From: Ignisphaera sp. | GTDB lineage: Archaea; Thermoproteota; Thermoprotei_A; Sulfolobales; Ignisphaeraceae | Reading direction: 5' to 3' | Assembly: GCA_038821645.1 (NCBI GenBank) | Contig: JAWBDT010000025.1 | Location: 1 to 15,126 of the forward strand | DNA length: 15,126 nt | Part shown: positions 238-15,126 of the stretch, piece by piece | How positions within the stretch are numbered: the stretch's first letter is position 1 | How the letters are laid out: the number at the start of each line of letters is the position of its first letter | Translations under genes and position numbers: made by a program | The notes under the pieces: model-generated | Database searches by the model: none | Told to the model about the DNA's origin: nothing | What the model saw: only the letters and a program-made list of their open reading frames with translations

Positions 238-280
238 AGATTTCTCACCGGGATACACACATAGACTCTGAAGAGGTAAT

Positions 281-356: not shown

Positions 357-372
357 GAGAGAATATATTTAG

Positions 373-672: not shown

Positions 673-676
673 GTCT

Positions 677-1651
677 ATGTTCCTCTCCATGAGCTTTAGG
701 CTAAAGGTTGAAGTAGAAGCCCTTAATATGGTTGAAGCAATGGGTGCATACAGTAGACATAGAACAGTATCTCTACTTAAGCCCAGGGGTGAGGGAAAGG
801 GATATAGACTCGTTATAGCTCCCGCAGTCTCCGGGCAAGCAGTAGCCTACGGCTACATGAAGAGCTTAGTAGAGTTAGCAACAAGAAAGAATCTACCTCT
901 ATGCGATCAATGTAGAAACTATGAGAGTATAGGGGGATTCATAAAGCATGGCACAGACAGTACAGGTAATCAAGGGCAGATTATTAGGATGTGTGTAGTT
1001 GATGATATAACAGGCTTTATGATTGCCAAAGCAAATGTTAGAAGAACATCACCAATACAGTTCAGCTACATGGTTCCAGATATAGATAGCTCTGATGTAT
1101 CAATAGAACCTCAATTCCATGTAAGAGCGCCAATGCCTGGACAAAAACCTCAGCCTTTCCAAGTAGAAGCTGGGACAGCTATATACGTGCTAGGTGTTGC
1201 ACTAGATATAGACAAGATAGGTGTAGTAGCTGGAGATGGAGGTGTACCGGAGAAAGTTGTAGGCAGTAGGGTAGATAGAATTAGGATAGCTATCCAAGCA
1301 CTAGCAAATCTAATCGAGGGACTGAGTTTCGGAGCTAAGAAAGCTAGATATCTACCGATATACGATGTTGTAGGAGCTATAGCAGCTCTATCACATCCAG
1401 TACCATTCATGGTGTCTCCAGCTAGAGTAGGTAGAGATGGTAGCAACTATATATCGAAGACATTATCTAGAGCTTCAAACTATGTAGATCTATTCAAGGA
1501 TGTAAATGAAGAGATAGAAATTGTGTATATGGATAATGAAGGTCTTAGTATAGAAACAAACATCAAAAATGTAAATATTGAAAAGGCCAACAATGTCTCA
1601 GATCTTATAGCAAAGATACTGAAAAAAGTTGAGGAAAAGGTTAGGGATTAG
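677..1651 (+). CDS. cas7: Type I-A Cas7 (Csa2)
   Basis: EALNMVE, PAVSGQ, DDITGFM, VRRTS, QFHVR, FGAKKARYLP motifs; 324 aa. Confidence 0.95.
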   Translation: MFLSMSFRLKVEVEALNMVEAMGAYSRHRTVSLLKPRGEGKGYRLVIAPAVSGQAVAYGYMKSLVELATRKNLPLCDQCRNYESIGGFIKHGTDSTGNQGQIIRMCVVDDITGFMIAKANVRRTSPIQFSYMVPDIDSSDVSIEPQFHVRAPMPGQKPQPFQVEAGTAIYVLGVALDIDKIGVVAGDGGVPEKVVGSRVDRIRIAIQALANLIEGLSFGAKKARYLPIYDVVGAIAALSHPVPFMVSPARVGRDGSNYISKTLSRASNYVDLFKDVNEEIEIVYMDNEGLSIETNIKNVNIEKANNVSDLIAKILKKVEEKVRD

Positions 1652-1653
1652 AT

Positions 1654-2436
1654 GTGGCTAGAAAGCTCTATGCTGTACTAGCAGAAGTATCGACATATGG
1701 CACTCTAGCTATCTATACCCCCTATGCATCTATATCTGCTGACACATATCTTCTACCACCACCAACAACAATAGTTGGAGCACTAGCATACTCTTACTAC
1801 AGATCATTGAATGACTTGAGAGAGTTAACAGAAAATGGATCTTCACCAGCTGTAGAACTGATTGACAAGAAAAAAGTTCTCTATGCAGCTGCAGGAATAG
1901 TGAAGCCTATTGGGCTCTCGAAATCTATAGAGAGGTTATACCAACATATATATCTAAAGAAGCCGCACTGGAAAAGACAGGAAATGGCTTATACGATAGG
2001 TGTTCGCCCTATATCTGTAGTTGATAGACTACAGATATTCTTTATTTTAAGTGATGAAGAATTGGTGAAGTATTGCTACGGAATAACGAGACTTGGTAGA
2101 AAAGAGTCTCTAGTTGCTGTAGATAATGTAGTTTCGATACCTTTAGAAAATGCTTTAACAGATTCAAAATACTGTGAAACAAGTTTCTATTTTCCATTAA
2201 GTATAGCTAAAGATTATTCACCAAGAGGGATGTGGATAGAGATCAATATGCCTATACTTGATAAACAAAACTATGCCAAGAAGACAACTGTTCTAGAGCG
2301 ATACGTAGTACCTAAACCTTTTACCGATGCAAAAGCCACAGTAGAGCTGAATGAAGAGGGTGTAGTGCTCAAGATGAATATAGGAGATAGAGAAATAGTT
2401 GAAGTTCCTGTACCAAAACAGGCTATAGAAATATAG
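1654..2436 (+). CDS. cas5: Type I-A Cas5
   Basis: TYLLPPPTTIVGALAY and ITRLGRKESLV motifs; directly follows cas7. Confidence 0.93.
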   Translation: MARKLYAVLAEVSTYGTLAIYTPYASISADTYLLPPPTTIVGALAYSYYRSLNDLRELTENGSSPAVELIDKKKVLYAAAGIVKPIGLSKSIERLYQHIYLKKPHWKRQEMAYTIGVRPISVVDRLQIFFILSDEELVKYCYGITRLGRKESLVAVDNVVSIPLENALTDSKYCETSFYFPLSIAKDYSPRGMWIEINMPILDKQNYAKKTTVLERYVVPKPFTDAKATVELNEEGVVLKMNIGDREIVEVPVPKQAIEI

Positions 2437-2450
2437 AGAAGGTGTAGAGA

Positions 2451-3527
2451 ATGTCTAGACATGCGAAGTCATCTACACTTCAACCAAAGATAACAGTACT
2501 GGATCTTATAAAATATAGGAACTATGCATTTGCTTGGTTCTCTGAGATAGCTATAAAGCTATGTACTGGTAGAGATCTCGAGGAACTAAATCAGAACAAC
2601 ATAAGTAGCATTCTATCTGATGTAGCTAAATGCTCTAACGATCTAATAAACAAGATGCATAAAGCTAATAAAGATCCCTGTACTTCTAGTCCTATACCTC
2701 TAACCGGAAACGATCCTAAGGAGAAGATGAATCTCTGTTACGCAAACACAGTCCTCAATAACTTGCTATCCATGTCTAAAATAGAATCTCTACCACTTCC
2801 TCCAGCACTTTCTCTAGAATTTGCAGAGTTCACAAGATCATTCATGGGTATTGGTAGAGAGAAGAGAAACGTATTTGTGATAGCTGAAGATGTTCTTGCG
2901 CTATCGATTATAGGGGCAAGACTAACTCAATCATATGTAGCTAACCGTGAATATGGCTACGTATACGTAGAAGTTGTACCGTACATTCTTTCCCTAGATA
3001 AGCTTAGAGACCTAAACTCTTTAGCCAAGAGAATTACAGAGAAAGTTCAGAAGAATGAGGGTAGCATAAACGTTGTCTTCATTGGTATAGCGACAGCGAT
3101 TAGTATCGTAGCCAAAGAGTTTCTAAGAGATATCCTGAAACGCGATGGACATACAATAGCAAACTACTTAAGGATAACTAGAACTGGGAACAAGATCATG
3201 GTTAAGGGCTTTGATTCTATAGATCTTGTACATCTAGCCAAGATAGTTAAGGCTGGTGGCATCGCTGGTGCACTATACAGTATACTGAACAGATATCCAT
3301 CCAAGGAGTATAACTCGTTGAGGAGATTCATAGAGTTAGTTGCAACAAACTTGATAAAGTATCAGAGCTTTAGAAAGCCTCAATACATATATGAGATCCT
3401 TAGGTACCTAACATCACCTGAGCTAAATACTGAAGGAGTTGAATGGTACACAAAGAAGAATACTAGAGGGCTTGACTGGAGTGAGATTGTAGAGAGATTC
3501 ACAAGACTTTCTAGACTCATAAACTAG
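2451..3527 (+). CDS. cas8a: Type I-A large subunit, Cas8a-like (Csa4/CsaX size class)
   Basis: Position between cas5 and cas3'; 358 aa; PLPPALSLEFAEFTRSF segment. The family assignment rests mostly on context. Confidence 0.7.
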   Translation: MSRHAKSSTLQPKITVLDLIKYRNYAFAWFSEIAIKLCTGRDLEELNQNNISSILSDVAKCSNDLINKMHKANKDPCTSSPIPLTGNDPKEKMNLCYANTVLNNLLSMSKIESLPLPPALSLEFAEFTRSFMGIGREKRNVFVIAEDVLALSIIGARLTQSYVANREYGYVYVEVVPYILSLDKLRDLNSLAKRITEKVQKNEGSINVVFIGIATAISIVAKEFLRDILKRDGHTIANYLRITRTGNKIMVKGFDSIDLVHLAKIVKAGGIAGALYSILNRYPSKEYNSLRRFIELVATNLIKYQSFRKPQYIYEILRYLTSPELNTEGVEWYTKKNTRGLDWSEIVERFTRLSRLIN

Positions 3528-3555
3528 TCAGCTGATTCTCCGAGGAAGCTAAAGC

Positions 3556-5325
3556 ATGTCTCATTTGTGCAGCAAATTTTCAAGTGGTAGAGCACTTATA
3601 GATACTCTCTCAAACTATATATACAGTCTCAATAAATTTGATCGAGTTATAGTCGTAGAAGCTCCTACAGGTTATGGCAAATCTGTTGGAGCACCTATTG
3701 TAGGTGCATTAAACTATACAAAAAATTTTTCTTATAACTTCATCCATGTGTTACCTCTAAGAGCTATAGTTGAGGATCTCTACTTATGTAAGTATTTAGC
3801 AGCTGTAACCAGCTGTAAATCAACTAAATGTAGAGCATTACCGCCAAATGTGTTTATCGAGGCTCTGAAGACAATGGAGATAGGTGAAGGTGATATAGCT
3901 TACCAGATGGGTCTAGACCATATGATTAGAGGTGTAGGAGTGAAGGAGCCTACCTACGACGCTAAAGTGATGGTATCTACACTAGATTCCTTTGCCTACA
4001 CCTTCTTCAGAATACCAGTAACAGAAATGTTTAGAGAAGTAAAACATTATGCTATTCCTAGGGCCCGGATATTTACATCAACTGTATTTCTTGATGAAGT
4101 TCATATGCTTAAGAGATTCGATGACGAGTCGTCTGAGAGAGCTTTAGCTTTCTTAAAGATACTTCTTGAGTTCTCTATAAAGACATCGACACCTGTTGTA
4201 TTAGCAACAGCAACTCTATGGAGTAGATTTAGAGAAATTCTAGCAAATTGGTGTGAAGGTAAAATAATGTTCTTCACTCTATCGAATAGAGATGAGAAAA
4301 GCGGTTCAACTGTTTATGTAAGAGACCGGGAATTCGAAGATGCTGCAAAATCGATAAAGTGGGTCACGAGTATCGTAGAAGAGAAAGATCTTGTGGCAAA
4401 AATCAATGAACATAGTAAATGTGATGAGAGGGTTCTTGTGGTAAGAGACACTATACGTCTTGCTGTAGACACATACAATAAAATTGATGTTGATTCTAAT
4501 GAGAAGGTTCTTATCCATAGCAGGCTATGTCTAAAGGATAGAGAAGATGCTGTAAATAGGGCTAGGACTGCAAAAGTTGTTGTAGCAACACCTATTATTG
4601 AAGCAGGTGTTGATTGGGATTTTGATGTAGGTTTTAGAGATGCTACAAACACACCTTCAGCAATACAAGTCTTTGGCAGGATTTGTAGAAGTAGAAGAGA
4701 TTGTGAAGCTTCTGTCTATCTAGTCAAGGTAAAGAACAGCCTAAGAGAGCTGATTGAGTACATAAACATGAATAGATACATCGACTGGAGAATACCGTAC
4801 AGCTATACTAGAAACGGAGTAGAGTTCAAAGGCTATAGCGAAGTATTAGAGAAATCAGCTACCATAACCATAGGTGTAGACAAAAATGCGGAAGAAATCT
4901 TCAGAGCATTAACAGCACCAATCTTCCTTCCATCAAAATACATAGAATCTGTACTAGAGATTACGAACTACAGCATACTTAAAGAACCTCTAACACAATT
5001 TTATGTATATGGATACAACAAACTTGAAAACTCGAGGAATTCAGATGAAATTATATCTGGAACCTTCACATATTCCTTAGAATTAGTGCGAAAACAATTG
5101 CGATGCATTGACTATTTCGTATGTGTTGTTGATAGAGAAGGTGAGCTGATTACGAGCTTCAGAAAAAATGTTTTACACACTACCATCAATTCTGTAGAGT
5201 ATGCAAAACTGTACAAGGAATGTATTAAGTCTTCCTCGGAAAGTAGAGGTAGACCTATTTTCATAGGATTTGTTTTAAAGGAGAACTGCTACAGAAATGG
5301 GCTTGGTTTCGTAGGTGATGAGTAG
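3556..5325 (+). CDS. cas3: Cas3' SF2 helicase
   Basis: Walker A APTGYGKS, LPLRAIVE, DEVH, ATAT, LIHSR, VATPIIEAGVD, QVFGRICR. Confidence 0.95.
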   Translation: MSHLCSKFSSGRALIDTLSNYIYSLNKFDRVIVVEAPTGYGKSVGAPIVGALNYTKNFSYNFIHVLPLRAIVEDLYLCKYLAAVTSCKSTKCRALPPNVFIEALKTMEIGEGDIAYQMGLDHMIRGVGVKEPTYDAKVMVSTLDSFAYTFFRIPVTEMFREVKHYAIPRARIFTSTVFLDEVHMLKRFDDESSERALAFLKILLEFSIKTSTPVVLATATLWSRFREILANWCEGKIMFFTLSNRDEKSGSTVYVRDREFEDAAKSIKWVTSIVEEKDLVAKINEHSKCDERVLVVRDTIRLAVDTYNKIDVDSNEKVLIHSRLCLKDREDAVNRARTAKVVVATPIIEAGVDWDFDVGFRDATNTPSAIQVFGRICRSRRDCEASVYLVKVKNSLRELIEYINMNRYIDWRIPYSYTRNGVEFKGYSEVLEKSATITIGVDKNAEEIFRALTAPIFLPSKYIESVLEITNYSILKEPLTQFYVYGYNKLENSRNSDEIISGTFTYSLELVRKQLRCIDYFVCVVDREGELITSFRKNVLHTTINSVEYAKLYKECIKSSSESRGRPIFIGFVLKENCYRNGLGFVGDE

Positions 5326-6107
5326 TGTGTTACGCTTATAGAGATAGAGGATCAGAAGAGTTTTTACTAAACCACTTAGTGGGTGTAGAGAAGTGTTGTG
5401 AGGAGAGGTGGGAGCTTAACGCATTATCATGTAAGATCTCCAGAGTGCTAGGGATACCTATAGATGATGTGAAAAACGCTATACTCTTGAGCTCGTTGCT
5501 ACACGATCTAGGTAAAGTTGCGCAAAAGTTTCAAAAAGAATGTGATCAAGGGATATGTAGAGAGTTTCCGGGACACTACATGATATCGGCGTTCTTGGTA
5601 CACCTAGGGCTAAGTGCTATGGAAATTGTAGTAGAAAGGGAAGATGTTAGCAATTTTATGGAGGATAGATTTGATAAGATTGATAAAAATAAGGTTACAG
5701 GTATTCTAATTCTATTCCCTATAGCGTTTCACCACTATCACCAAGTTAGAGGCTATAGAAGTTACTCTTTTAGCGAGTATTTGAAGGAGTTTGTTGAAAA
5801 GCCTAGAATTTGGGATAGATGTATTGAATGTCTAAAATCAATACATGAATATATAGACAATAACAACATACTTAATATAGCTAAAAAGTTGCTCGATTTT
5901 TTGTTGAATCTAGATAAGCTAAGGAACAGCGATGTGTATAGGAATAGTAAATTATTTATCGAGAATTTCTATAACAATGTAGTGGATGAATATGTGAAAT
6001 TGCAATCAATAACATTATCGAGTGTTGTTATAGAATCGATTACAGGTTTGATTAATTTATGTGATGGTTATGTAGCTCATAGAGCACGAGGTGTTGGTAG
6101 GAAATGA
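5325..6107 (+). CDS. cas3'': Cas3'' HD nuclease (stand-alone)
   Basis: LLNHL, LLHDLGK, GH, AFHH, LCDGYVA motifs; split Cas3 is diagnostic of type I-A; start overlaps the cas3' stop. Confidence 0.93.
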   Translation: MCYAYRDRGSEEFLLNHLVGVEKCCEERWELNALSCKISRVLGIPIDDVKNAILLSSLLHDLGKVAQKFQKECDQGICREFPGHYMISAFLVHLGLSAMEIVVEREDVSNFMEDRFDKIDKNKVTGILILFPIAFHHYHQVRGYRSYSFSEYLKEFVEKPRIWDRCIECLKSIHEYIDNNNILNIAKKLLDFLLNLDKLRNSDVYRNSKLFIENFYNNVVDEYVKLQSITLSSVVIESITGLINLCDGYVAHRARGVGRK

Positions 6108-6895
6108 TATCGGTGTTTAATATCAAGGCTACTGTTGTTAGGTCTGTTCCTCTTATTGGTTGGAGTGGTTCTTTTGTGGCTAAGGTTGTTAAGTCTTGTT
6201 TTCCTAGAGAGGTTCTTGATTGTGGTTTCTCTATTTCTCCTTTGCTTCAGAATGGTAGGATTGTTTTGAGTGGTGTTAATGGTTCTCATGTTGTTTTAGA
6301 TGATGGTTCTAGTTTTTGGTTTAGGTTTACTTCTTATTGTAGAGATGGGTCTGTTGTTGCTAGAGTTGTTGATGTTGTATCTAATGATGTTCTTGATGTT
6401 TTTAGGGCTTCTGAGGTTGAGTTTCGTGTATATGAGTCGTCTATTGATTTGCTTAATGACTGCGATTTTTGTGGTGAGGATAAGCTTGTTAAGTTTATTG
6501 ATTCTAGGGGTAGAGCTATGGTTGAGGTTTTCTTTGGTCCAACAATGCTTATGTTTAGGGGTTGGAGAGTGTTGTATCCTTCTCCTCAGAGGCTTGTATA
6601 TACCTTGGCTAAGTCTAGTGTTGATTTCTTGAGTGTTGATCCTAGGGTTGCTAGGAAAAGAGCTAGAACTCTATCTAGGAATATTGAGATAGTTGGTTAC
6701 GGAACCAAGGTTGTAGATATATATATAGGTAGGAATAGAAAGGTTAAGGCATTCATGGGGAAAACCGTCTTCGGGGTTCAGAGGCTGGAGAACCTTAGGG
6801 ATTTTGTTGAGCTACTTGAGGTCGGTAGACTGGTTGGTGTTGGTAGGTCTAGGGGTATAGGTTTTGGCTATATAAGCTATAGAGTATTGTCTTGA
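6104..6895 (+). CDS. cas6: Cas6 crRNA-processing endoribonuclease
   Basis: C-terminal G-rich loop GVGRSRGIGFG; LYPSP motif; ATGA overlap with cas3''. Confidence 0.92.
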   Translation: MISVFNIKATVVRSVPLIGWSGSFVAKVVKSCFPREVLDCGFSISPLLQNGRIVLSGVNGSHVVLDDGSSFWFRFTSYCRDGSVVARVVDVVSNDVLDVFRASEVEFRVYESSIDLLNDCDFCGEDKLVKFIDSRGRAMVEVFFGPTMLMFRGWRVLYPSPQRLVYTLAKSSVDFLSVDPRVARKRARTLSRNIEIVGYGTKVVDIYIGRNRKVKAFMGKTVFGVQRLENLRDFVELLEVGRLVGVGRSRGIGFGYISYRVLS

Positions 6896-6914
6896 ATTGG
6901 TGGATATAGTTTTG

Positions 6915-7520
6915 ATGAAGCTCTACATAGTTTCAAAACCTTTAAATAGTTCTATAGATGATATGCTTAAGGTAGTAGGTTTCGATAGAAAAACAGCTAT
7001 AGCTATTGTTGGCTCTAATCTAGCTGAAGAAGACTACTGTAGTAGGTATCTATGTCTAGATACATTAAATGGTTTCGAGGAATTAGCAAAAAACGTAGTC
7101 GAGATTATTAAGAGAAGAGGTATTCGTTATGTAAAGCTTGTGCTAGGAGATACAGATGGTCTTACTTCAACAGCTATCTATACTATGTACATGGTTTTTA
7201 ACACAATTGAGCTAGCTATAGATCTAGAGATTGATCCTCTAAACATAGTCTATGATGAAGAACTTATTAAGCTAGACTTCAAGCCTAGGCTTTGGCTAGA
7301 TCTTAGAGATCTAGAGATACTGACTAGACTAGATAGCTGTAGAGCTAGTAGAGATATAGCGGATATACTCAACATCCCTAGCTCTAGCTCAAGACGAAGA
7401 CTATTCAACATGATGAGGAAAGGATTAATAGATATAATGTATAGAGGTAGGAAAAAGATATATTGTCCAACAACTCTAGCCAAGATCTTTTCCTACACAT
7501 TGATGCAGATGTTTCTATAG
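6915..7520 (+). CDS. Divergent Csa3-like regulator (degenerate CARF-like N-domain + C-terminal winged HTH)
   Basis: C-terminal LEILTRL..ASRDIADILNIPSSSSRRRLFNMMRKGLI..GRKKIY is a wHTH; ~200 aa; cas context. ATG 6915 follows a GGTGG RBS (ORF track start 6897). Confidence 0.7.
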   Translation: MKLYIVSKPLNSSIDDMLKVVGFDRKTAIAIVGSNLAEEDYCSRYLCLDTLNGFEELAKNVVEIIKRRGIRYVKLVLGDTDGLTSTAIYTMYMVFNTIELAIDLEIDPLNIVYDEELIKLDFKPRLWLDLRDLEILTRLDSCRASRDIADILNIPSSSSRRRLFNMMRKGLIDIMYRGRKKIYCPTTLAKIFSYTLMQMFL

Positions 7521-8065
7521 AAACAAATACTGCATCTAGTCTTAGATGGAGTTGATCTAGGAAGCTTCTCTTCAGCAATCATCTTGTGGATCTCTTTTAC
7601 AGATCTATAGACTATTTCCCTAATATTGGGCGATATAGCTATCTCGAATACAGATCTAGGTTCGAGGGAGAGAATAATTGCTCTATAGACAGGTTTATTG
7701 ATTGTTTCTTCAACAGCTATAGCATAGCTTACTAACTGTACTACATGGTGTAGAGCATATCTTTTAATAGCTTTAGGAGAGCTTCTGAGCTTAATCTCTA
7801 TAGGTATAGCTTCTTTATCGCATATAGCGAGAGCATCTACATAGCCATGTATACCTAGTCTACTGGAGTAGACATATCTATCAACCTCTATACAGCATCT
7901 ATCGCTAAGCTTATGCTTAATAGCTTCATATATGTTTTGAAGTGAAGGTCTAGATTCTCTAGCATACATCATGGACTCTGTAGGAGGTTCAAGTATAGTG
8001 AATATCTTGAAGTAGGCTATCCTCGGACAGTAGGTGTATTCCTTGATTATTGTTATAGGTATCAT
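7493..8065 (-). CDS. cas4: Cas4 RecB-like nuclease with Fe-S cysteines
   Basis: YTYCPR, GYVDAL, IEIKL, QLVSYA, CSICFYRNIC. Confidence 0.95.
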   Translation of the reverse strand: MIPITIIKEYTYCPRIAYFKIFTILEPPTESMMYARESRPSLQNIYEAIKHKLSDRCCIEVDRYVYSSRLGIHGYVDALAICDKEAIPIEIKLRSSPKAIKRYALHHVVQLVSYAIAVEETINKPVYRAIILSLEPRSVFEIAISPNIREIVYRSVKEIHKMIAEEKLPRSTPSKTRCSICFYRNICINV

Positions 8066-8343
8066 AGAACTTCTAATGATTTCTCACCCACCTTAGCCTG
8101 AGAATTAAAGAACATAGCTTTATCCATGTACTCCTTAGGCACAACTATAACACCTATAGAATCTGTAGATCTATCTATAACTCTTAGAAGAGCTCTAAAA
8201 GCTTCTTTAGCTAGACTAGTGTTTCCTTTAGCTATATATACACTTCTCTGAACCCTTTGGAAACCAAGTCCCTGAAGCTTTTCAGCAGCTATAAGTCTTC
8301 TACTATTGTCAGATATATCATAGAAAGCAACTATATAGCTCAA
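8062..8343 (-). CDS. cas2: Cas2
   Basis: FYDISDNSRR and FQRVQRSVY motifs; 93 aa; between cas1 and cas4. Confidence 0.95.
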   Translation of the reverse strand: MSYIVAFYDISDNSRRLIAAEKLQGLGFQRVQRSVYIAKGNTSLAKEAFRALLRVIDRSTDSIGVIVVPKEYMDKAMFFNSQAKVGEKSLEVL

Positions 8344-8344
8344 A

Positions 8345-9331
8345 CTATATCACCAGTCTAGCTCCTCTATACTCTAGACCTTCTCTAATGCAGTAAGCTA
8401 GATCCCATGCATCTCTCTTTATAATTTCAGAAAGCTCTTCTCTTTTACTAGTTTTAATGTATAGATATCTCTGTCTAAGGTTTTCGAGAACAATAGATGC
8501 TACAGATTTTCTAGAATCTGTGTCTAGTCTATCTTGTTGAATAGCTAGCTTAATCTTCTTAACGTTTATCACAAGAGGTTTATCTACCGCAATAGCTCTA
8601 AACATCTCGACAAAGTCTAGCGTTAGAGAAGGCTTTCCACTTTTAGGGGTATGGAGAACACCTAGATATGGATCTAGACCAGCAAAAAGAAGAGATCTTT
8701 CACATACGCTATAGAGAATCCCGTAGCCATAGTTTAAAGCCATATTGAATAGATCTCTAGACTCGTGGTCTCTACCCCTAAACCCTAGGCTATCTGGGAG
8801 TAGAGAGGCTATGGTTTGCCAATAGGCTTTAGCTGCTCTAGACTCAAACGACATGAGGATATCTCTATCAAGAATCTTTGGATCTAATGCTCTAAGCTCT
8901 GTAGCTATAGAGTCTATCTGGTAAGCAACTTCTCTTAAGCTTGGCTCTCTATAGTTTTTCGCTAGATACCTTACGAGCTCTACTTGGTTAACTATCTTGG
9001 TATAGACAATCTCTTTAGCCAGCTTCCTACCGTAGTCTCCTTGAAACAACATGTACTGGGAAACTCTTACAGCAACAGTTTTGTTTATATATGGTGGATA
9101 TAGGCGTGCTATAGGCATCCCGTTAAAATCTAGGAAAACAAAGTCAATACCTCTTCTAGCAGCAACTCTAATAGCTTTAGAGGATATACTAACCCTTGAA
9201 GAAGCTACAACTACACAATCTATATCTGGAGGTATAAGGATTTTCTCCTTAGAATCTCCTTTAACAACATATATACCTCCTCTCCTACACACCACTCTAG
9301 AGCCAGGAGAAACTATGGTGAAAATCTTCAT
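8345..9331 (-). CDS. cas1: Cas1 integrase (start reassigned to ATG 9331, 328 aa)
   Basis: FESRAAKAYW, NMALNYGYGIL, GLDPYLGVLH, LDFVEMFR. ATG 9331 overlaps the TGA of the csa1 C-terminal fragment (ATGA). Confidence 0.95.
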   Translation of the reverse strand: MKIFTIVSPGSRVVCRRGGIYVVKGDSKEKILIPPDIDCVVVASSRVSISSKAIRVAARRGIDFVFLDFNGMPIARLYPPYINKTVAVRVSQYMLFQGDYGRKLAKEIVYTKIVNQVELVRYLAKNYREPSLREVAYQIDSIATELRALDPKILDRDILMSFESRAAKAYWQTIASLLPDSLGFRGRDHESRDLFNMALNYGYGILYSVCERSLLFAGLDPYLGVLHTPKSGKPSLTLDFVEMFRAIAVDKPLVINVKKIKLAIQQDRLDTDSRKSVASIVLENLRQRYLYIKTSKREELSEIIKRDAWDLAYCIREGLEYRGARLVI

Positions 9332-9442
9332 CTCTTTCCACCACAAAAAACAGAATAGGGACAACTAGAGTAACAGTTATCTGGTATAGGTGGCTCTTCA
9401 CCATGCTCTAAGATCATTGCCACTCTATCTCTAGCCTCTAGA
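9328..9442 (-). pseudogene. csa1: Csa1 (Cas4-like) C-terminal fragment
   Basis: Manual translation 9441-9328: LEARDRVAMILEHGEEPPIPDNCYSSCPYSVFCGGKR*. It carries the three C-terminal Cys missing from the 14206-15051 ORF and has no upstream coding continuation of its own. Confidence 0.88.
9437..9442. repeat. TCTAGA, left junction repeat of the insertion
   Basis: Identical hexamer at 14216-14221; coincides exactly with both the csa1 break and the ATPase truncation. Confidence 0.8.
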
Positions 9443-10202
9443 GCATTTCGATGTTGGAAAAGCCTTGTTTGCATCATACAAAGAGGTCTTTGAATTTATA
9501 CAGGATCTAATTTCAATACCGCTGGGAGCTTCAATAGCTAGGGCTATTATGTCTGTTGTCAGCAGATTTGCTCAGAGAATTGGGTTGGAGGGCAAGTCCG
9601 TGGTTGTTGTTCTCGATGATGTGTATAGAGCTATAGGTTTGGATGAGGTGGATAGATATACAAAGTCTCTCTATGAATGGATTGGCTATCTACATGAAAG
9701 ATACAAGGCATCGAACGTAGCCATAGTTCTAACAACCTCTGAGGGCATGTCAAAGAGGATTCTATCCAAACACACATATGTATCCATATACATGATGTGG
9801 AACCTGCCTAAGAAAAGCTTTGAAGAGTTCGTCGAGCAGCTGAATCCACATATAGATGCCGAAGCCATTTGGATGCACACCGGAGGCAATCCACGGGCAA
9901 CCATAGACCTGGCAAGACATGGCTGGAGCATCGACAAGTGGCTTAGCAAAATCTACGAGGATAGAATCAGAAGAGCTGTACACATAATCGGAAGAGACAA
10001 AATCCTCCAACTTGCAGAAAATCCAGACTTTGATTGGGCAATAGCCGAGAAACTCGAAGAGCTAAACCTTATGATAGAACTTAGAAGAAGTTCCGCCATA
10101 AGCCAAATACCTAAGAAAGACCTTGACCTCGGCATAGGCGAGGAGTGGGCATGGCAAATACCGGCATACAGATATGCAATCACACGATTCGCAAAAAGCT
10201 AA
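9438..10202 (+). pseudogene. 5'-truncated archaeal AAA-type ATPase (crenarchaeal multicopy ATP-binding protein family)
   Basis: Has Walker B VVLDDV, TTSEG, TGGNPR and AWQIPAY but no Walker A. The frame is open upstream of TTG 9465 up to the TCTAGA junction (LEHFDVGKA-LFASYK). Confidence 0.8.
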
Positions 10203-10612
10203 ACACAGCATTGAACAAGCATTTATTAGAGGCTTTTAGCTTTGAAAGCCATGGCTATTGCTTAATACCATTGCAAAACCTCTTTTCAGAGATGCTGAAC
10301 CAGGGAAGGCATCGATGTATAAATTTTTAGATTAGACAATATGCTAAACACAATGTAGTTATGATTTTGGATGATACAACCGCTGAAAAGAATTTGGACA
10401 CCATTGCCAAGTGTCCTGTCAGAGAAGGTATGGGTAACAACATCAAAAGAGATATATTTAAACACAATATCAAAGGCTATTAGCAGATATGGTGCCATAG
10501 ATGCTGTATCCAGCAATGTCTCAATCTATGTAGTCAAACCTGGATTCAACGAAAAAGCGAAGAGGAGTTTCACAGCATATATTGAGATGTCCTCAACTCC
10601 ATAGAGATTGTG

Positions 10613-10652
10613 TGGCGGGCCCGGAGGATTCGAACCTCCGACCACCGACTTC
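10613..10652 (-). other. tRNA 3'-half remnant (att-like site; Arg- or Lys-type acceptor end)
   Basis: Reverse complement GAAGTCGGTGGTCGGAGGTTCGAATCCTCCGGGCCCGCCA: T-arm GGAGG-TTCGAAT-CCTCC, GGGCCC-G-CCA end. No 5' half or D-arm adjacent; the acceptor strand appears one C short. Confidence 0.85.
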
Positions 10653-10794
10653 AGTGGCTTTGCTTCTCTGCTTTTCGTATGTATTCGCTACATAGTTCTA
10701 GTATTCCCTTGTAGTCGTCTGATGAGATATCGTCTCCTACTCTAAGCTCTAGGAGGCTTCTACACTCTTCTTCGCCGAGCCTGAGCCTGGCCAT
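10651..10794 (-). CDS. Small hypothetical protein (47 aa, MARLRLGEEECR...)
   Basis: GGTGA RBS directly before ATG 10794; charged helical composition; stop abuts the tRNA remnant. Confidence 0.45.
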   Translation of the reverse strand: MARLRLGEEECRSLLELRVGDDISSDDYKGILELCSEYIRKAEKQSH

Positions 10795-10855
10795 GGGTTC
10801 ACCACTTACTTGTTTACTGTTGCTCACATAATTATGCCTTGCCGGCTCTTGGTTA

Positions 10856-11146
10856 GTGGGGAGCGCAGTGTCTCTTGTTGTGGAGAGTGATAGGAGCGTT
10901 GAAGCAGGGGTGAAGCAGAGGTACACAGTGTACGTAAAGCCATCGAAGAAGGTAGTCGTTACCAGACCGGGTTCAGAAGCAAGCGTATCATTACATGTAG
11001 AGTCGAACACCAGTCTAGAAGTCCACTTATTCGTCGAGGGACTAGAGCCGACCATAGCAACCTACACTCTTTCACCGCAGAGGGAATATATACCGTTCAC
11101 TTCGAGCCTGGAGCTCCTAGTGTCGCATAACGTTATAATAAACTAA
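10856..11146 (+). CDS. Hypothetical beta-rich protein, probably a gene remnant
   Basis: 96-aa ORF. In-frame upstream ATG 10793 encodes a hydrophobic leader (MGSPLTCLLLLT*LCLAGSWLV) broken by TAA at 10829-10831. Confidence 0.4.
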   Translation: MGSAVSLVVESDRSVEAGVKQRYTVYVKPSKKVVVTRPGSEASVSLHVESNTSLEVHLFVEGLEPTIATYTLSPQREYIPFTSSLELLVSHNVIIN

Positions 11147-11174
11147 TAATAAAAATAACTAGATATATGGTCTT

Positions 11175-11197
11175 GAAAATTGGGAAAAAATAGAAAA
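11175..11197 (-). terminator. T-rich archaeal terminator of the two-gene unit
   Basis: - strand TTTTCTATTTTTTCCCAATTTTC begins about 12 nt after the stop at 11210. Confidence 0.45.
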
Positions 11198-11209
11198 TGA
11201 GTTGGGATA

Positions 11210-12019
11210 TTAGCTGTTGCTAAAGCTTATTGTTACTGGGATATTCCAATGAACCGAGTAATCCCACTCCCACCAACACCAGAACAAGAAACAACTCTGG
11301 TACCAATGTCTGAATCCAGCAGCAGGGCCAAGTTCTATTGTATACGTTTGAGTGCCTGGATATGTTGGATATGTTTTGATATAAGCTACTGTAATTTCAA
11401 ATGTCCATGCAGCTCCTAGTTCTGCAGAACTTGGTGGAGGTTCGTTGCAGTGCCAGAACTCCCAATGGCTCTTGGGGTAAACGTCTGTTAGAGACCATGA
11501 TACACCATTTGCGCGCCATGATGTTGACTGAGTATAGCTCGCAGTGATGGCTGGCCCATTCTTAGATATTGAAGCTGATACGCTAAACGTTTCACTCCAA
11601 CTTTGTGCACAACTTGTTTGAGATGACTGCGGAATCAAGTTGTAAATGCCAAAGACACCATATTTATCATAGATATATGGGCCAACGCCTCCACCAGTAG
11701 CACTTTGACCTGCTTTTCCAGCAACAGTAAATCCATCATTATTGCTTGAGGGATTTACAGGATCGACAATATCTCTCAAATACACTGCATACCATTCATG
11801 ATATCCAGCCTGTGTATATCCAGCGAATTTATATACTTCATAGTAATAATATATGTTACCATAAGAACTACTTTGATAGCCATAACCAATCAATATCAAA
11901 TTCCAATTTTGTTGTGTCACACCAGCATTTACATCAGGCAAGCATAGTATTGCTAACAGGCCTAAAAGAGCTAGCAGAACCGACAGATGCGCTCTGCCTA
12001 TCGCCCTCATCATACTCAC
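11210..12019 (-). CDS. Secreted Tyr/Trp/Ser/Thr-rich protein, possible beta-pore-forming-toxin-like fold
   Basis: N-terminal signal peptide (basic residues, LSVLLALLGLLAILCL, VNA cleavage-like site); central alternating Ser/Thr hairpin SWSETFSVSASISKNGPAITASYTQSTSW; Trp-rich C-terminus. The CDS is well supported; the function is inference. Confidence 0.75.
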   Translation of the reverse strand: MSMMRAIGRAHLSVLLALLGLLAILCLPDVNAGVTQQNWNLILIGYGYQSSSYGNIYYYYEVYKFAGYTQAGYHEWYAVYLRDIVDPVNPSSNNDGFTVAGKAGQSATGGGVGPYIYDKYGVFGIYNLIPQSSQTSCAQSWSETFSVSASISKNGPAITASYTQSTSWRANGVSWSLTDVYPKSHWEFWHCNEPPPSSAELGAAWTFEITVAYIKTYPTYPGTQTYTIELGPAAGFRHWYQSCFLFWCWWEWDYSVHWNIPVTISFSNS

Positions 12020-12023
12020 CCCT

Positions 12024-12758
12024 TCACCTCCCAGGTACTAAATCATTTTCTGCTTTTACAACTAACATTAGGGTATTAAGCAATGCCTTTTGGATTGCAT
12101 CATCTATGTTGTTGAAGTCGTCGATATGCACTGTGCCTGTAAAATCGATTGGAACTAGCCGCCCATCTATGTTCCTATATGTCCTGCCTACAACGATTAA
12201 CAAATTCTGTGATATGGTTTCGGCTCTTCCATCTTTATACTGTTTTGTGATTGTAACTCTAGATTCGCTAATGTAGCTGAGTGGTGGGTCAAATAATTTA
12301 CTAATACTCTGAATTACTCTTGAATCATTTGCTACAAAAAGTATGTAGTTGCTGCCTCGTGCAAGTCCACGAAGAACATCGATGTTTCTAGCAGAAGAAT
12401 TTATCTCTTTCAACACCTCCTCGTCTAACAGATTCAATATGACTATAGACGGCTTCCAAAGTTCGCTACCAGCAAGCGTGGATACACTACCACATCTTGT
12501 TGTCGAAGCGTTAATGTTCTTATAAGTCAAGATTTTCTGCAGGTTTTTGTACAGCACACTGCTATTGTGTTCTACAACTATGAAGCTCCATTTATTAAGG
12601 AGTTGCAAATCAATACCAGCTTCAACGTCGCTTTTCGGGATTACACTATTTTCCTTGCTTACAATTGCAGATGAATATATCAAACCACCAATTATTGACA
12701 AGCCTATGACAATCAACACTATGCTAACCTTATTATTTAGCCTAATCATAGAGAACAA
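12024..12758 (-). CDS. Hypothetical protein with N-terminal membrane anchor
   Basis: 244 aa; single hydrophobic helix VSIVLIVIGLSIIGGLIY; GGGGTG RBS before TTG 12758; stop lies 4 nt before the next gene. Confidence 0.8.
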   Translation of the reverse strand: MFSMIRLNNKVSIVLIVIGLSIIGGLIYSSAIVSKENSVIPKSDVEAGIDLQLLNKWSFIVVEHNSSVLYKNLQKILTYKNINASTTRCGSVSTLAGSELWKPSIVILNLLDEEVLKEINSSARNIDVLRGLARGSNYILFVANDSRVIQSISKLFDPPLSYISESRVTITKQYKDGRAETISQNLLIVVGRTYRNIDGRLVPIDFTGTVHIDDFNNIDDAIQKALLNTLMLVVKAENDLVPGR

Positions 12759-13019
12759 CTTTACACCCCAAGTTATAAAGTTAAGATAAGAAAGTTAAAA
12801 AACTTTTATGACAGTATTTGTTTTCCCTCTATAGCAATGCTTTTTACTACAGGCCTTCGTATGCCTATTATATTTACTTCCCTCTCCACTCCTCATAGCC
12901 TACACCACTGGTTTCCACAGATTTGAATGTTGGAGTGTTGCTTGAAATGAATATTTATACGATATAGCTATGGGTGTGATGGTCTTGTGTTTTTCCGCTG
13001 AGAGAATAGCTCTCGGGGT

Positions 13020-14056
13020 TTACCGCTGGTACTTGAAGTAGGTGTTGTCGTTCTTCTTGTTCACGTGTTCTTCGGGCACAACGAGGTGTTTGGTAATTGC
13101 ACGTGCTTGTGCGGGGTTGTAGTTTACCTCTGCTACTAACTCTCCATAGATGGTTTCTAGCCTAAATCCCCCGGTGTTATCGGGGTAGACAGCTATATAT
13201 AGTATTAGTGGCGATCCCTAAGCTAGCCGTCCCATGGTTTTAAGTATGTAGTGTATTTTCCTCGCTTCTCTGTAACTGTCATGGAAGCACGCCTTTATTA
13301 GGCCGCCTACTGGCTGCACGTGTACGAACTCCTGCCTGAAGCCCATATCCCGAAGTATTTCCGCTAGCCTTTCGGAGCGGAAGTAGTGGTAGTTGGGTTT
13401 AGCCTTCTTCTCCCAGTAGATGAATATGTCGTCAATCCACAGTACCCATCTTCCATTCTCCCGCGTGCCTACGAGGGTGTGCTGTATTAGCCCCAGCGCT
13501 CTTCGTGTCTGACCCTGCTCTACTAGCCTTTCAGCAATGCGAAGCACCCTCTTGACAGCTAGTGGAATGGTCTTCTCCCTTGCGGTGCCTCTGCCTTCTG
13601 CTTCCGAATCCGTGGCAAGTGTCTCTAGCAATTGTTTGGCACCCTTCCGGCCGCTTCTAACCCGTTTAGCATCTATTAGCTCTAGGATTAGCTCCTCATC
13701 GTCTACAGCGGTGTAGTACCTGCCCTGCCTCTTCACGATTATTCCCTTGTTCGCCATCATCTCGATGAGGTCTCCGACCGTGCCGTTGCTCACCTCCCTG
13801 CGTTTGAAGAACTCGTAGATGGCCTTTATGTCGATGAAGCTCATTCCTCTATCTCGTAGAAAGCTGCTTAGGAGGAACCAGATGACGTACTGTATCCCAT
13901 TGATGAAAGTCTAAATATATTATAGTAGCTTAGCAGTATGTGCAGGTAATTCACTACCTCTACTGGGAGGCTATGCGGCATTATGACGAGCACTAGGTTT
14001 ATGGTGCCGAGAACCTCGTTGAACGTACTCCTAGCGATAACTTGGAATGGGTACAT
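13020..14056 (-). pseudogene. Decayed ~345-codon gene with a winged-helix-like segment (one frameshift, one nonsense codon)
   Basis: The frame of ORF 13218-13844 is open upstream to 13910 and overlaps ORF 13868-14056 (frameshift near 13905). After TAG 13218-13220 the same frame continues 65 sense codons (GSPLILYIAVYPDNTGG...NTYFKYQR) to TAA 13020-13022. Confidence 0.65.
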
Positions 14057-14080
14057 CCCTAGTTTGTTTTGTTTTCTAGG

Positions 14081-14099
14081 AACCCCCTATACGGGGGTT
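14081..14099. repeat. Inverted repeat AACCCCC-N5-GGGGGTT
   Basis: Perfect 7-bp arms; a second CGGGGGTT copy at 14115-14122; lies just upstream of the decayed gene. Confidence 0.6.
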
Positions 14100-14215
14100 A
14101 TGTTCCTCTCTTGCCGGGGGTTGATACGGCATAAGCATCAACAGCATAATAATTATCATCAACAACGGTATCAATAATGCTTGGTAATGTTTTAGAGCTA
14201 ATAACCTATAACCCT

Positions 14216-14221
14216 TCTAGA
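14216..14221. repeat. TCTAGA, right junction repeat of the insertion
   Basis: Csa1 similarity ends here (RAFLE, then GL*). Confidence 0.8.
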
Positions 14222-14907
14222 AAAGCTCTTCTAAGGTTATCATCAATTCTTACAATTCTCCAACTCAAAACAGGATTATCACCATCAACAATACCTATAT
14301 AGAGAGCTACAGCAAAATCAACTGGATGACCAATCCAACTCTCTATAGCTAGAGCATATCCAGCTAAAGCTATCTCCTTCCTCTCAAAAACCCTCTCGCT
14401 CACAGACGCAAGAGAAATATCAACAGGTAGAAAACCAACAAGAAGATCAGGTTTAACAAAATCAGATAAACCAATAGCTGCTCCAGGAATCATAGGCTCA
14501 ACAGATATAGGGACACCATCCTCATTAGAGTACATAGCTAGCGACAAAGCCTTCCTAAACAACTTCCTAAAGAAACTCCTATAACCTCTAAGCATTGGAT
14601 CAAAACCATGAAACATTTTCTCAAAACCTCTAACAATATCAACAACATCTCTATCCCTAAACCTAAAAGGATAGAGAAAAACATCATGAACAGCTCTACC
14701 AAAAACAAAAACACCTCCATCAACCCTAACCCTAACAACCCTCCTAAGCCAAACATCCCTCTTACTAGGACAAGGACTAGAAACATCAGAGATACTGGGC
14801 CTAGCCAAAAACCTAGAACCAACAACATCAAACCTCCAACCCCTAACATCAGCAACAACCTCACCACCAACAGACCTAACATAATCCCAAACCCACCTAG
14901 GAAACAC
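14216..14907 (-). pseudogene. csa1: Csa1 (type I-A Cas4-like), N-terminal ~230 codons, truncated by the insertion
   Basis: VRGWRF, PSISDV..CPSKRDVWLRRV, GRAVH, KPDLL, LAGYALAIES..PVDF, IDDNLRRAFLE motifs. Probable GTG start at 14907 with GGGTG RBS. Lacks the C-terminal Cys cluster, which is found at 9328-9441. Confidence 0.88.
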
Positions 14908-15022
14908 AACAACCACCCAAACAAAAACAACACAAAAAACCAGATAAACATAACCCCGAACACAAAACCACTCACACCCAACTACAAAAAACAAACAATA
15001 CAAAATCCAAAACAAAAACAAA
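14908..15022. other. Low-complexity A/C-rich tract upstream of csa1
   Basis: The + strand is almost only A and C (CAAAA/CCAAA-type runs) with no regular period. Confidence 0.6.
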
Positions 15023-15126
15023 CATCTATTCTTTGCAAGTAATACTTTCAATACTTACTCATTAGAACATATAAATTCAATTCTTTTCATTACATCATCA
15101 GAACAGTTAAATAAACTCAACTCTTA

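Follow-up and report, generated by a model that had tools for sequence, protein, structure and literature searches.

Interruption of csa1 in a hyperthermophilic archaeon by an apparently foreign chromosome segment bounded by TCTAGA

The csa1 gene of Ignisphaera sp. genome G000, a gene needed for CRISPR memory-making in this hot-spring archaeon, is split by DNA that appears to derive from another species of the same genus and that runs from one TCTAGA to another. The explanation we favour, with modest confidence, is a recent knock-out by a foreign fragment that was joined in through cutting and rejoining at TCTAGA, most likely restriction-type cleavage and ligation, and not a switch. The features of the window (the whole 15,126-nucleotide stretch of DNA that was analysed) are collected in Table 1.

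Table 1. Features of the window, with the comparisons on which each assignment rests.
Feature	Position	Strand	Basis
cas1 (ATG near 9331), cas2 and cas4, all intact	7493..9364	-	Pfam matches
csa1 3' tail, 37 codons + stop overlapping the cas1 start, three Cys	9328..9442	-	profile match; 37/37 identical to G004 tail
Left junction TCTAGA, common to target and donor	9437..9442		G007:C1/G011:C31 identity from 9436; G004 identity to 9442
Apparently foreign inserted DNA, 4779 bp including one TCTAGA	9443..14215		cross-species identity; G+C
5'-truncated ATPase_2 gene, PF01637 profile positions 72-223 of 225	9443..10202	+	open from junction; Walker A part absent
Remnant of tRNA gene 3' part (attL-like)	10607..10651	-	89% like tRNA-Arg(CCT)
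Most of a small, decayed tRNA-Arg-integrated element	10652..14221		comparison with G006 and G007
Displaced, inverted N-terminal (Ig-like) part of recombinase-like gene	10856..11146	+	homologue comparison
269-aa ORF, hydrophobic N-terminus, no family	11210..12019	-	ORF list and family searches
244-aa ORF, N-terminal hydrophobic stretch, no family	12024..12758	-	ORF list and family searches
Pseudogene, wHTH + putative tyrosine-recombinase-fold protein	13020..14056	-	ORF and homologue comparison; predicted fold
csa1 5' part	14206..15051	-	PF06023 and TIGR01896 matches; 99% identical to uninterrupted G004 gene
Right junction TCTAGA; also a boundary in G042, G043 and one X10 contig	14216..14221		cross-genome alignment

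csa1 is split, and the empty site is present in relatives

A sequence-only reading of the window had proposed that an insertion of about 4.8 kb splits csa1, and this account held up when profiles and related genomes were brought to bear on it. The 281-aa ORF that it took for Csa1 terminating in ..RAFLEGL* matched Pfam family PF06023 (E = 8.1e-37, best stretch up to profile position 258 of 292) and TIGR01896 (Cas4/Csa1; E = 6.5e-40), the Csa1 match beginning near residue 60; the last two residues of this ORF (GL) and its stop are read from insert DNA as a fusion tail. The detached 37-aa tail (9331-9441, minus strand) matched PF06023 positions 257-291 of 292 (E = 5.8e-6), its 26.3 bits falling slightly below the 27-bit cut-off for what is a very short piece, and the two halves thus abut on the profile. 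Both breakpoints lie, as had been claimed, in copies of TCTAGA 4779 bp apart; joining the halves there restores the reading frame, and the stop of the tail overlaps the cas1 ATG. The same locus in genome G004 (contig C2; 97.1% identity over window positions 1-9442 and 99.0% over 14214-15126) has a single TCTAGA and an uninterrupted, open 315-aa Csa1 that covers PF06023 to position 291 of 292 (E = 2.2e-48), and its C-terminal 37 residues are those of the window tail without exception. Relative to G004 neither half has a further lesion, also as had been read, and the frame was open in all eight csa1 loci retrieved from relatives (G000's own excluded). Because TCTAGA is common here (the window has 21 copies where 10.7 are expected; the genome has 2185, or 1 per 719 bp, which places the word 23rd among 4096 hexamers), the hexamer alone is weak evidence, and the case for the split is carried by the exact abutment of the halves together with the empty site in G004.

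Pfam matches to Cas1, Cas2, Cas4 and Csa1 all lie on the minus strand in the window and are contiguous in G004, in agreement with the earlier assignment of csa1-cas1-cas2-cas4 to a type I-A adaptation operon. Csa1 is a Cas4-family nuclease of type I-A systems, for which four cysteines are required for the Fe-S cluster. Of these, the cysteine of ..SPCPSK.. is in the N-terminal part, and the other three belong to the detached tail; the ORF as now present ends before these three, and the four are no longer in one polypeptide. In addition, 4.8 kb now separate cas1-cas2-cas4 from the 5' part of csa1 and the region upstream of it. Since G000 has one cas1 and one csa1 in all, i.e., the set in this window, its spacer uptake (adaptation) is probably impaired by the csa1 lesion.

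The csa1 junctions are real, as Logan contigs show. In run X1, from what may be the source study, contigs cover 8500-12086 and 12942-15006 at a depth of 54-56; in run X5, from a different study, they cover 8500-12074 and 13653-15006 at a depth of 37-42. These independently built contigs bridge both junctions at even depth. A chimera from assembly, binning or library preparation, e.g., in-vitro ligation of XbaI-cut DNA, is highly improbable even though the pattern is just like restriction cloning and every genome involved is metagenome-assembled: assemblers do not join at 6-bp overlaps (the 127-base overlaps between G000 contig ends point to k = 127), the bridging contigs come from another pipeline and match their flanks in depth, ligation in vitro would yield scarce and heterogeneous products, the window contig (C25) belongs to the G000 lineage by its synteny with G004:C2, and a comparable block in genome G042 (described below) is identical in two assemblies that differ in contig structure and coverage. 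The aside in the sequence-only reading that TCTAGA is an XbaI site turned out to be key as a signature of DNA joining, but not as a sign of a cloning artefact. Contigs of runs X7 and X10, from two further studies, hold the empty site, and the allele is therefore polymorphic in nature (filled in X1 and X5; empty in G004, X7 and X10); the contigs of X1 and X5, which drop rare variants, contained no empty-site or circle form. This polymorphism, the near identity of the insert to DNA of another species and the loss of three cysteines support the view that csa1 was recently knocked out by insertion.

The insert resembles a chromosome segment of another species

Measured over 400 bp at a time, the G+C content of the insert rises as high as 0.54, whereas the genome value is 0.35. 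It is 100% identical to G007:C1 over 2328 bp, 99.3% identical to G007:C3, 99.7% to G006 and 99.8% to a locus of G042 (L025); housekeeping genes common to G000 and G007 are just 72-78% alike. To judge from these identities, the insert is a TCTAGA-to-TCTAGA chromosome segment of another, G007-like species of the same genus (99-100% identical). In the donor this segment spans from a TCTAGA inside an ATPase gene to a TCTAGA 53 bp short of a tRNA-Arg gene; its left edge cuts the ATPase gene, of which the insert keeps two thirds (the whole G007 gene encodes 331 aa at L021 8406-9401, beside pyridoxal-synthesis-like genes). We considered an insertion sequence or transposon and rejected it: family profile searches found no transposase family among the insert ORFs, none of the 28 inverted-repeat pairs found is a terminal inverted repeat of the insert, and the flanking 6-bp repeat is not a target-site duplication because in G007, G006 and G011 TCTAGA already bounds the segment on either side. 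The insert has no mobility functions and no ends of its own.

These properties bear on a second, more speculative suggestion of the sequence-only reading, that the insert is an excisable element acting as a programmed, reversible switch of spacer acquisition in the manner of skin in sigK. Precise excision between the two copies of TCTAGA would give back csa1 in its reading frame, the gene halves being otherwise undamaged, and reversal is chemically possible if a TCTAGA cut-and-join activity exists. Nevertheless, we find a switch barely credible, since the insert is a random foreign chromosome piece with a truncated gene, lacks an intact recombinase and dedicated ends, and has a circle junction that restores no gene, the truncated ATPase gene included; moreover, none of the eight csa1 loci retrieved from relatives has the insertion, and the comparable block of G042 is situated in a different gene.

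A decayed tRNA-integrated element within the insert

The region 10652-14221 represents a tRNA-integrated element: in G006 and G007 it lies between a tRNA gene and a direct copy of part of that gene's 3' portion, with the remnant at the left and an intact tRNA-Arg(CCT) 53 bp past the right TCTAGA. In the comparison of G006 with G007, the true att boundary falls at the tRNA remnant. The attR/tRNA side of the element was left behind, the window carrying the remnant only, and ARAGORN found no whole tRNA in the window.

The only recombinase-like gene of the insert is a pseudogene made up of a 208-aa ORF (13218-13844), an in-frame TAG and then 65 codons (13020-13217) with a C-terminal Tyr motif; a frameshift lies upstream, near 13850-13870. 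The same TAG is present in 5/5 copies. The recipients G000 and G042 have no intact copy, and an intact paralogue is found in donor-like G007 (G007:C4). When the C-domain model was compared with known structures (VIA-align), the top 26 rows were all tyrosine recombinases, topoisomerase IB or protelomerases, the best match being XerA (Z = 6.4, rmsd 3.5 over 123 residues, moderate at Z <8). The family of the 208-aa ORF has a nearly invariant R, E-x-K and R, with the Tyr motif conserved in the consensus; Foldseek returned no match for the C-domain, and there was no Pfam integrase match for the family.

TCTAGA recurs at junctions in other genomes

In G042, four G007-like fragments (5.73 kb, 0.9 kb, 163 bp and 1.94 kb) from dispersed G007 loci lie head to tail with TCTAGA at 5/5 boundaries and carry truncated genes, and three of the four hold no element DNA at all. 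This block adjoins G042's own type I-A cas genes, sits in a gene other than csa1, and is 100% identical over 16624 bp between two assemblies (L025 and L078). In G043, the element runs precisely to its usual right-hand TCTAGA and passes there into a fifth right-hand context, and its left junction, at window position 11637, is not TCTAGA. Across the three assembled genomes TCTAGA was thus found at 8/9 such junctions (2/2 here, 5/5 in G042, 1/2 in G043). By comparison, among 16 structural differences between G000 and G004 in 331 kb, TCTAGA stands at both edges of one, the csa1 insertion itself, and it does so in 0/22 intragenomic repeats.

Sequence-unspecific illegitimate (microhomology-mediated) joining, with TCTAGA present by chance as a very common word, is accordingly very unlikely. 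The high rank of the hexamer would favour it, as would the shared stretch at the right junction, which extends to 9-10 bp, but even with weighting by the cube of word frequency the chance of TCTAGA is 0.8% for one event, which is hard to square with eight of nine junctions. Further, the target retains the word at either edge of the insert and has lost no bases, which fits cohesive ends or a single crossover and not end joining, and ordinary differences between G000 and G004 lack TCTAGA edges.

Proposed mechanism

Because a non-mobile piece runs from TCTAGA to TCTAGA and sits in TCTAGA, we infer that it was joined by something that cuts and rejoins at this word; only 23% of the CTAG sites here are TCTAGA, and the specificity is therefore for six bases. 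The joins are those expected of an XbaI-like enzyme, one 6-bp palindrome that is native in donor and target recurring at the junctions. Under the cut-and-join reading, a type II restriction-like activity would have made staggered cuts at TCTAGA in both recipient DNA and the chromosome of a G007-like donor of a different species of the genus, and cohesive-end ligation would have followed as a natural counterpart of cloning. The product is a Csa1 without its last 37 residues, with cas1-cas2-cas4 severed from the csa1 start region, and the outcome a fixed lesion in carrier populations.

Four methylase families were searched in G000, G004, G006 and G007, and no candidate endonuclease/methylase pair for TCTAGA was found: PF01555 gave no match above cut-off, PF02086 gave none, G000 and G004 passed the PF02384 cut-off just with a short frame of 207 aa (24.7 bits), and the only C5 methylase has housekeeping surroundings in each of the four. 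G006 and G007 also carry 1221-aa PglX-like proteins. Restriction enzymes are often missed by family searches. Avoidance of the recognition word is common, although not universal, in enzyme-hosting genomes; TCTAGA is not avoided (observed/expected 0.94 in G000 and G004:C2, 1.19-1.34 in samples of G006, G007 and G042), and this speaks against a restriction system of that kind having been resident for long.

TCTAGA sites inside the joined DNA escaped cutting (two in the csa1 insert, five in the G042 block); these and the left junction in G043 count against a restriction-ligation reading.

At least five contexts share the right-hand TCTAGA, but the left end differs among them (9437; L021 7692; 11014 in X7 and X10 contigs). 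With ~2000 sites per genome, such repeated use is not predicted by random fragment capture, and it hints at an element-linked or site-preferring process. One such process would be a site-specific recombinase, e.g., a tyrosine recombinase with TCTAGA as its 6-bp crossover region, the right-hand copy serving as preferred partner and other copies as secondary sites, and aberrant excision taking flanking chromosome as in specialised transduction. The crossover regions of tyrosine recombinases usually measure six to eight bases, which the word fits, and the constant right end, the element-encoded protein with its nearly invariant Arg, Lys and Arg, its C-terminal Tyr motif and its recombinase-like C-domain model, and the intact paralogue in G007 all speak for this possibility. 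We still consider it rather unlikely, because the gene is a pseudogene with a shared TAG and the recipients have no intact copy, ten native TCTAGA sites that we compared share no sequence (no arms) outside the word, most G042 fragments are free of element DNA, the fold match is moderate with nothing from Foldseek, and recombination at so frequent a word would be expected to rearrange genomes heavily, whereas collinearity between G000 and G004 is broken by ordinary differences alone.

More generally, and more tentatively than for csa1 itself, we suggest that co-resident hyperthermophilic archaea of hot springs may pass chromosome pieces between species by TCTAGA-specific cut-and-join, a natural restriction cloning in which DNA would be cut at TCTAGA, chained and ligated into TCTAGA sites of other genomes, persisting in dispensable defence loci (type I-A cas). 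If this is true, the repeated use of one TCTAGA next to a decayed integrated element might be the mark of a previously unrecognised means of mobilising DNA that needs neither transposase nor att sites.

Comparison with known systems

Like skin in Bacillus subtilis sigK, the csa1 insert splits a gene by a few kb, and precise removal would restore the frame; however, skin has its own recombinase, specific attachment sites and programmed excision, whereas the csa1 insert is foreign chromosomal DNA with neither recombinase nor attachment sites and no excised form among the contigs. In Sulfolobales, cas genes are also inactivated by insertion sequences. Those knock-outs likewise break a CRISPR-Cas gene with inserted DNA and are polymorphic among strains, but the csa1 insert has no transposase or inverted repeats. 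Aberrant excision and secondary-site integration of the lambda type and one-ended transposition of the IS91 type share with our case one constant and one variable end, the carriage of flanking chromosome, and a short word common to the variable end and the target; they differ in that the fragment here has no active recombinase or HUH protein and that G042 fragments without element DNA are joined alike.

Chang and Cohen (1977) are said to have described recombination driven in vivo by the type II restriction enzyme EcoRI in E. coli, and restriction-enzyme-mediated integration occurs in yeast and Dictyostelium. Those are laboratory systems with a known enzyme, whereas here the four genomes searched yielded no enzyme or matching methylase, the donor belongs to a different species from the recipients, and the joined DNA has become fixed in archaeal populations in the wild. 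What the two have in common is that unrelated DNA is joined exactly at a 6-bp palindromic recognition site, with the site regenerated at both junctions, joining in either orientation, fragments joined in chains, and internal sites that may stay uncut.

csa1 is interrupted by a real and polymorphic insertion

A minus-strand ORF that the sequence-only reading had identified as most of Csa1 terminates at RAFLEGL, and a 37-codon tail, the stop of which overlaps the cas1 ATG, lies on the other side of a 4779-bp insert. The two pieces abut on the Csa1 profile (see the table of features), and the same locus in the sister genome G004 (97.1% identity over window 1-9442 and 99.0% over 14214-15126) has a single TCTAGA and an open Csa1 of 315 residues that covers the Pfam profile to position 291. 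Since the profile matches abut and the G004 gene is uninterrupted, we conclude that csa1 is indeed split, as that reading had proposed; its assignment of the tail to the Csa1 C-terminus is likewise supported, as the last 37 residues of G004 Csa1 are identical to it (37/37). The remaining parts of the proposal, that both breakpoints fall in TCTAGA and that joining them gives an in-frame csa1, also held, and G004 provides the empty site in a related genome. TCTAGA alone is weak evidence, as it is among the commonest hexamers of the host genome G000 (23rd, with 2185 copies, observed/expected 0.94).

The window is the whole of contig C25 of a metagenome-assembled genome of 31 contigs; because G004:C2 passes from G000 contig C22 via the CRISPR array into C25, the contig belongs to the G000 lineage. 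Twenty public hot-spring/subsurface runs from nine studies contain at least half of the sampled words of window 8900-14800, and contigs of four runs (X1, X5, X7, and X10) were placed on the window as a junction check. Contigs of X1, possibly from the source study, cover 8500-12086 and 12942-15006 at depth 54-56, and those of X5, from another study, cover 8500-12074 and 13653-15006 at depth 37-42, so that the junctions expected by the sequence-only reading are both crossed in runs of two studies. No joints, empty-site ends, or circle ends were among the contig ends listed for X1 and X5, where contigs cannot reveal rare forms. In X7 and X10, from two further studies, contigs end at the junctions and no bridging contig was among those listed; their loose ends represent the empty site, with the 12 letters after 9442 equal to window 14222-14233 and, in X10, the 12 letters before 14216 equal to window 9425-9436. 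The X7 loose ends before 9436 also continue into the donor's native ATPase context. Because contigs span the insertion in X1 and X5 and empty-site ends occur in X7 and X10, the insertion is a real, polymorphic allele; that an assembly artefact made it is very unlikely, given the spanning of both junctions in the two studies.

Coordinates of features in the window and in the genomes compared
Feature	Location	Detail
csa1, larger piece	14206-15051 (-)	Pfam Csa1 match to profile position 258/292 (E 8.1e-37); TIGR01896 Cas4/Csa1 match (E 6.5e-40)
csa1, 37-codon tail	9331-9441 (-)	Csa1 profile positions 257-291 (E 5.8e-6)
TCTAGA, left junction	9437-9442	
TCTAGA, right junction	14216-14221	
Partial copy of tRNA 3' part	10607-10651	
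tRNA-integrated element (most of it)	10652-14221	
208-aa ORF	13218-13844	longer relatives, 330-450 aa
Window copy of the 208-aa ORF's family	13020-14056 (-) and 10856-11146 (+)	
cas6	6104-6895 (+)	AT skew to -0.44, GC skew to +0.44
csa1, 5' third	14400-15051 (-)	AT skew to +0.57, GC skew to -0.68
G+T-rich stretch upstream of csa1 in G042	L025 2123-2716	
CRISPR array, G000	G000:C22 1-814	
CRISPR array, G004	G004:C2 (L022 7967-8708)	
G042 block	within L079 (G042:C7:58300-78299)	
G043 segment	L077 / G043:C22 (5157-bp scaffold)	window 11637-14221 at 99.9%
BREX-like island L088	G007:C4:238000-257999	adjoins tRNA-Arg(CCG)
29-kb inversion	G000:C4 16285-45362; G004:C2 127735-156915	no TCTAGA pair at ends

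The insert is a piece of foreign chromosome

The left 760 bp of the insert are an ATPase_2 gene without its first ~70 profile positions, the frame being open up to the junction. G007:C1, from a donor-like genome of another species of the genus, is 100% identical to window 9436-11763 and has this gene whole (331 aa, with Walker A) beside pyridoxal-synthesis-like genes, and the archaeal genome G011 has the same native left context. On the right, G007:C3 (99.3%) and a further genome, G006 (99.7%), match the window up to 14224 and reach an intact tRNA-Arg(CCT) gene 53 bp further on; a partial copy of the 3' part of the tRNA lies within the insert, and G006 shares DNA only from there rightwards. 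As there is a tRNA remnant on the left and the intact tRNA-Arg(CCT) beyond the right end in G006 and G007, the intervening sequence represents most of a small tRNA-integrated element, without the right attachment side. The insert thus consists of this truncated element together with a tRNA remnant and an ATPase gene of which two thirds are present. It is near-identical to G007, whereas housekeeping genes common to G000 and G007 are only 72-78% identical, from which it follows that it is recently acquired foreign chromosome. Each end of the segment has a native TCTAGA in the donor.

We found no terminal inverted repeats in the insert and, by family searches, no transposase among its ORFs. PHROGs and NCBIfam searches of these ORFs gave nothing usable, PDB searches by sequence gave nothing, and single-protein scans identified no viral relatives. 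A self-contained element was considered and rejected, as an in-silico circle junction leaves the ATPase gene unrestored, with stops before the junction. An SSV-type split integrase was also rejected: the small ORF by the tRNA remnant stops at the remnant's edge, and beyond the donor tRNA the DNA has a promoter-like, noncoding appearance. Contigs of X1 and X7 branch at window 12971, which is not at TCTAGA, into a paralogue of the 3' region of the element that is 80% like G006:C12 and G007:C4:742506.

The element carries a decayed recombinase-like gene

The family of the 208-aa ORF is unannotated (60 representatives at E up to 0.001); Pfam searches of it matched a winged helix only, with no integrase model match. 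The model of a 427-aa member (pLDDT 88.9) has an Ig-like N-domain, a winged helix, and a C-domain. Foldseek with the whole model gave only Ig-like matches, to the N-domain, and with the C-domain nothing. When the C-domain was modelled alone (pLDDT 91.9) and compared against 48,161 chains, the top 26 rows were tyrosine recombinases, topoisomerase IB, and protelomerases, the best match being to XerA (Z 6.4, rmsd 3.5 over 123 residues), with SSV1 integrase at Z 3.1. This evidence is coherent and gives moderate support for a tyrosine-recombinase-like fold in the predicted C-domain. A PD-(D/E)xK nuclease had been a candidate for the ORF and was rejected, as the D is unconserved in the wider family and the fold search led to tyrosine recombinases. 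Three lesions mark the window copy: the last 65 codons, with the conserved Tyr motif, are cut off by an in-frame TAG; there is a frameshift upstream; and the N-terminal part (the plus-strand portion in the table) is inverted. The TAG is common to all five copies (G000, G006, G007, G042, and G043), and intact paralogues occur in G007 (G007:C4:247867-248787) and G043 (G043:C4:150746-151690) only. Island L088 of G007 contains an SSV-type integrase (PF16795), an intact member of this family, a 1221-aa PglX-like methylase, and BrxL, which mark it as a BREX-like defence island carried by an integrated element.

The same signature occurs in two other genomes

Metagenome contig L025 holds window 9436-14222 at 99.8% and is identical over 16,624 bp to L078 of genome G042, another assembly. 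When set against G007, the G042 block resolves into four fragments, of 5.73 kb, 0.9 kb, 163 bp (in inverted orientation), and 1.94 kb, that come from scattered G007 loci and are joined in a chain; all five boundaries are exactly at TCTAGA, and five internal TCTAGA sites are unused. Genes on the fragments are cut short: a radical SAM gene is without its start, MoeA has only the N-domain, and a glycosyltransferase is truncated. G042 has no second copy of the block. Beyond the block, similarity to the genus of G000 is no more than 66-75%, which makes the block foreign DNA in G042 too. On one side of it are the type I-A cas genes of G042 and on the other an AAA_5 (McrB-like) gene of 621 aa, which places the block within a defence island. 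The frame of the interrupted host ORF (182 + 109 codons, matching no family) continues open for 109 codons on crossing the block, a pattern suggestive of clean insertion into a single TCTAGA. We found no relative with an uninterrupted copy of this gene, the G003 homologue covering residues 10-160 only.

In G043 the segment meets a different host ORF at the same right-hand TCTAGA, this ORF also ending in LEGL. The left boundary of the segment, at 11637, does not coincide with a TCTAGA, and an IS200-like Y1 transposase is found ~0.6 kb away. Branching is also seen in contigs of both X7 and X10 at 11014, where an internal TCTAGA begins, and in a single X10 contig at 14222, where it leads into a further context. 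In the assembled genomes eight of nine junctions are at TCTAGA, and ten native sites, when printed, had nothing in common beyond it. The specificity is hexameric, since only 23% of CTAG words here are TCTAGA. As controls, comparison of G004:C2 (331 kb) with G000 gave 16 structural differences, of which the csa1 insertion alone is bounded by TCTAGA on each side; none of 22 intragenomic repeats (self-BLAST of G000) is so bounded; and the element boundary in G006/G007 is at the tRNA remnant. A 29-kb inversion separates G000 from G004 (see table).

How the DNA was joined

The insert is foreign, its junctions are exactly at TCTAGA, it has no ends or enzymes of its own, and the pattern recurs in other genomes; these junction features are most simply explained by a staggered cut at the 6-bp palindrome in both donor and recipient DNA, followed by ligation, the enzyme being one we infer. 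Such cutting and ligation would regenerate the site on both sides with no target bases lost, and would give chains of unrelated fragments in either orientation with internal sites unused. We identified no candidate methylase/endonuclease pair in G000, G004, G006, or G007 and no avoidance of TCTAGA in any genome sampled, both of which argue against a resident enzyme. The PglX/BrxL genes beside the intact G007 paralogue were set aside, as a BREX-like island would not explain palindrome cuts. The right-hand TCTAGA is reused in at least five contexts, which random fragment capture does not predict; this reuse keeps alive a recombinase-based or element-linked mechanism for the joins. Against that mechanism, the recombinase-like gene of the element is defunct, no intact copy of it is present in the recipients G000 and G042, and three of the G042 fragments are without element DNA. 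That pure microhomology made the joins is very unlikely (0.8% per event under frequency-cubed weighting). We saw no link to the chemistry of spacer integration, as the CRISPR repeat is without TCTAGA.

Consequences for the CRISPR locus and comparison with known processes

G000 has one cas1 and one csa1; its broken Csa1 is without three Cys residues, and the distance from cas1-cas2-cas4 to the start region of csa1 is now 4.8 kb. Given the known properties of Cas4-family proteins, it is reasonable to infer that spacer uptake may be impaired or altered in G000. The sequence-only reading had offered either a knock-out of csa1 or an excisable on/off switch: the foreign insert and the missing Cys residues favor the knock-out, and the lack of own ends or enzymes speaks against the switch. 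The arrays of G000 and G004 have a common repeat and no spacer region that aligned, and therefore spacer content has turned over since the lineages split, a turnover that cannot be timed against the insertion. The coding strands of cas6 and of the 5' third of csa1 are extremely G+T-rich, resulting in long shadow ORFs in other frames; G042 has a similar stretch upstream of csa1.

DNA from a fourth lineage is thus present in near-identical form in three archaeal genomes, with a single hexamer at its junctions; in shared genes, about a third of the bases differ between the donor genus and at least one of the recipients. The interest lies in this TCTAGA cut-and-join signature common to the three recipients. 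Our search of the open literature, supplementary files apart, gave no instance of foreign fragments that are bounded by restriction sites and have become fixed in wild prokaryotes, and ligation wording was not found in a restriction-modification review (PMC12707154). The insertion shows a natural route by which CRISPR adaptation may be lost and, for annotators, that a split gene with a clean insert is not necessarily due to a mobile element or a switch. Insertional knock-out of a gene is commonplace; what is unusual here is the kind of DNA inserted and the manner of joining. Restriction enzymes are usually regarded as barriers to gene flow, yet restriction-enzyme-mediated integration is a known process, and the stitching of foreign DNA into genomes by these enzymes has been demonstrated in the laboratory, where Chang and Cohen reportedly obtained restriction-promoted recombination in vivo in 1977. 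The csa1 allele of G000 is a knock-out by insertion, probably via an unusual route described only in the laboratory.
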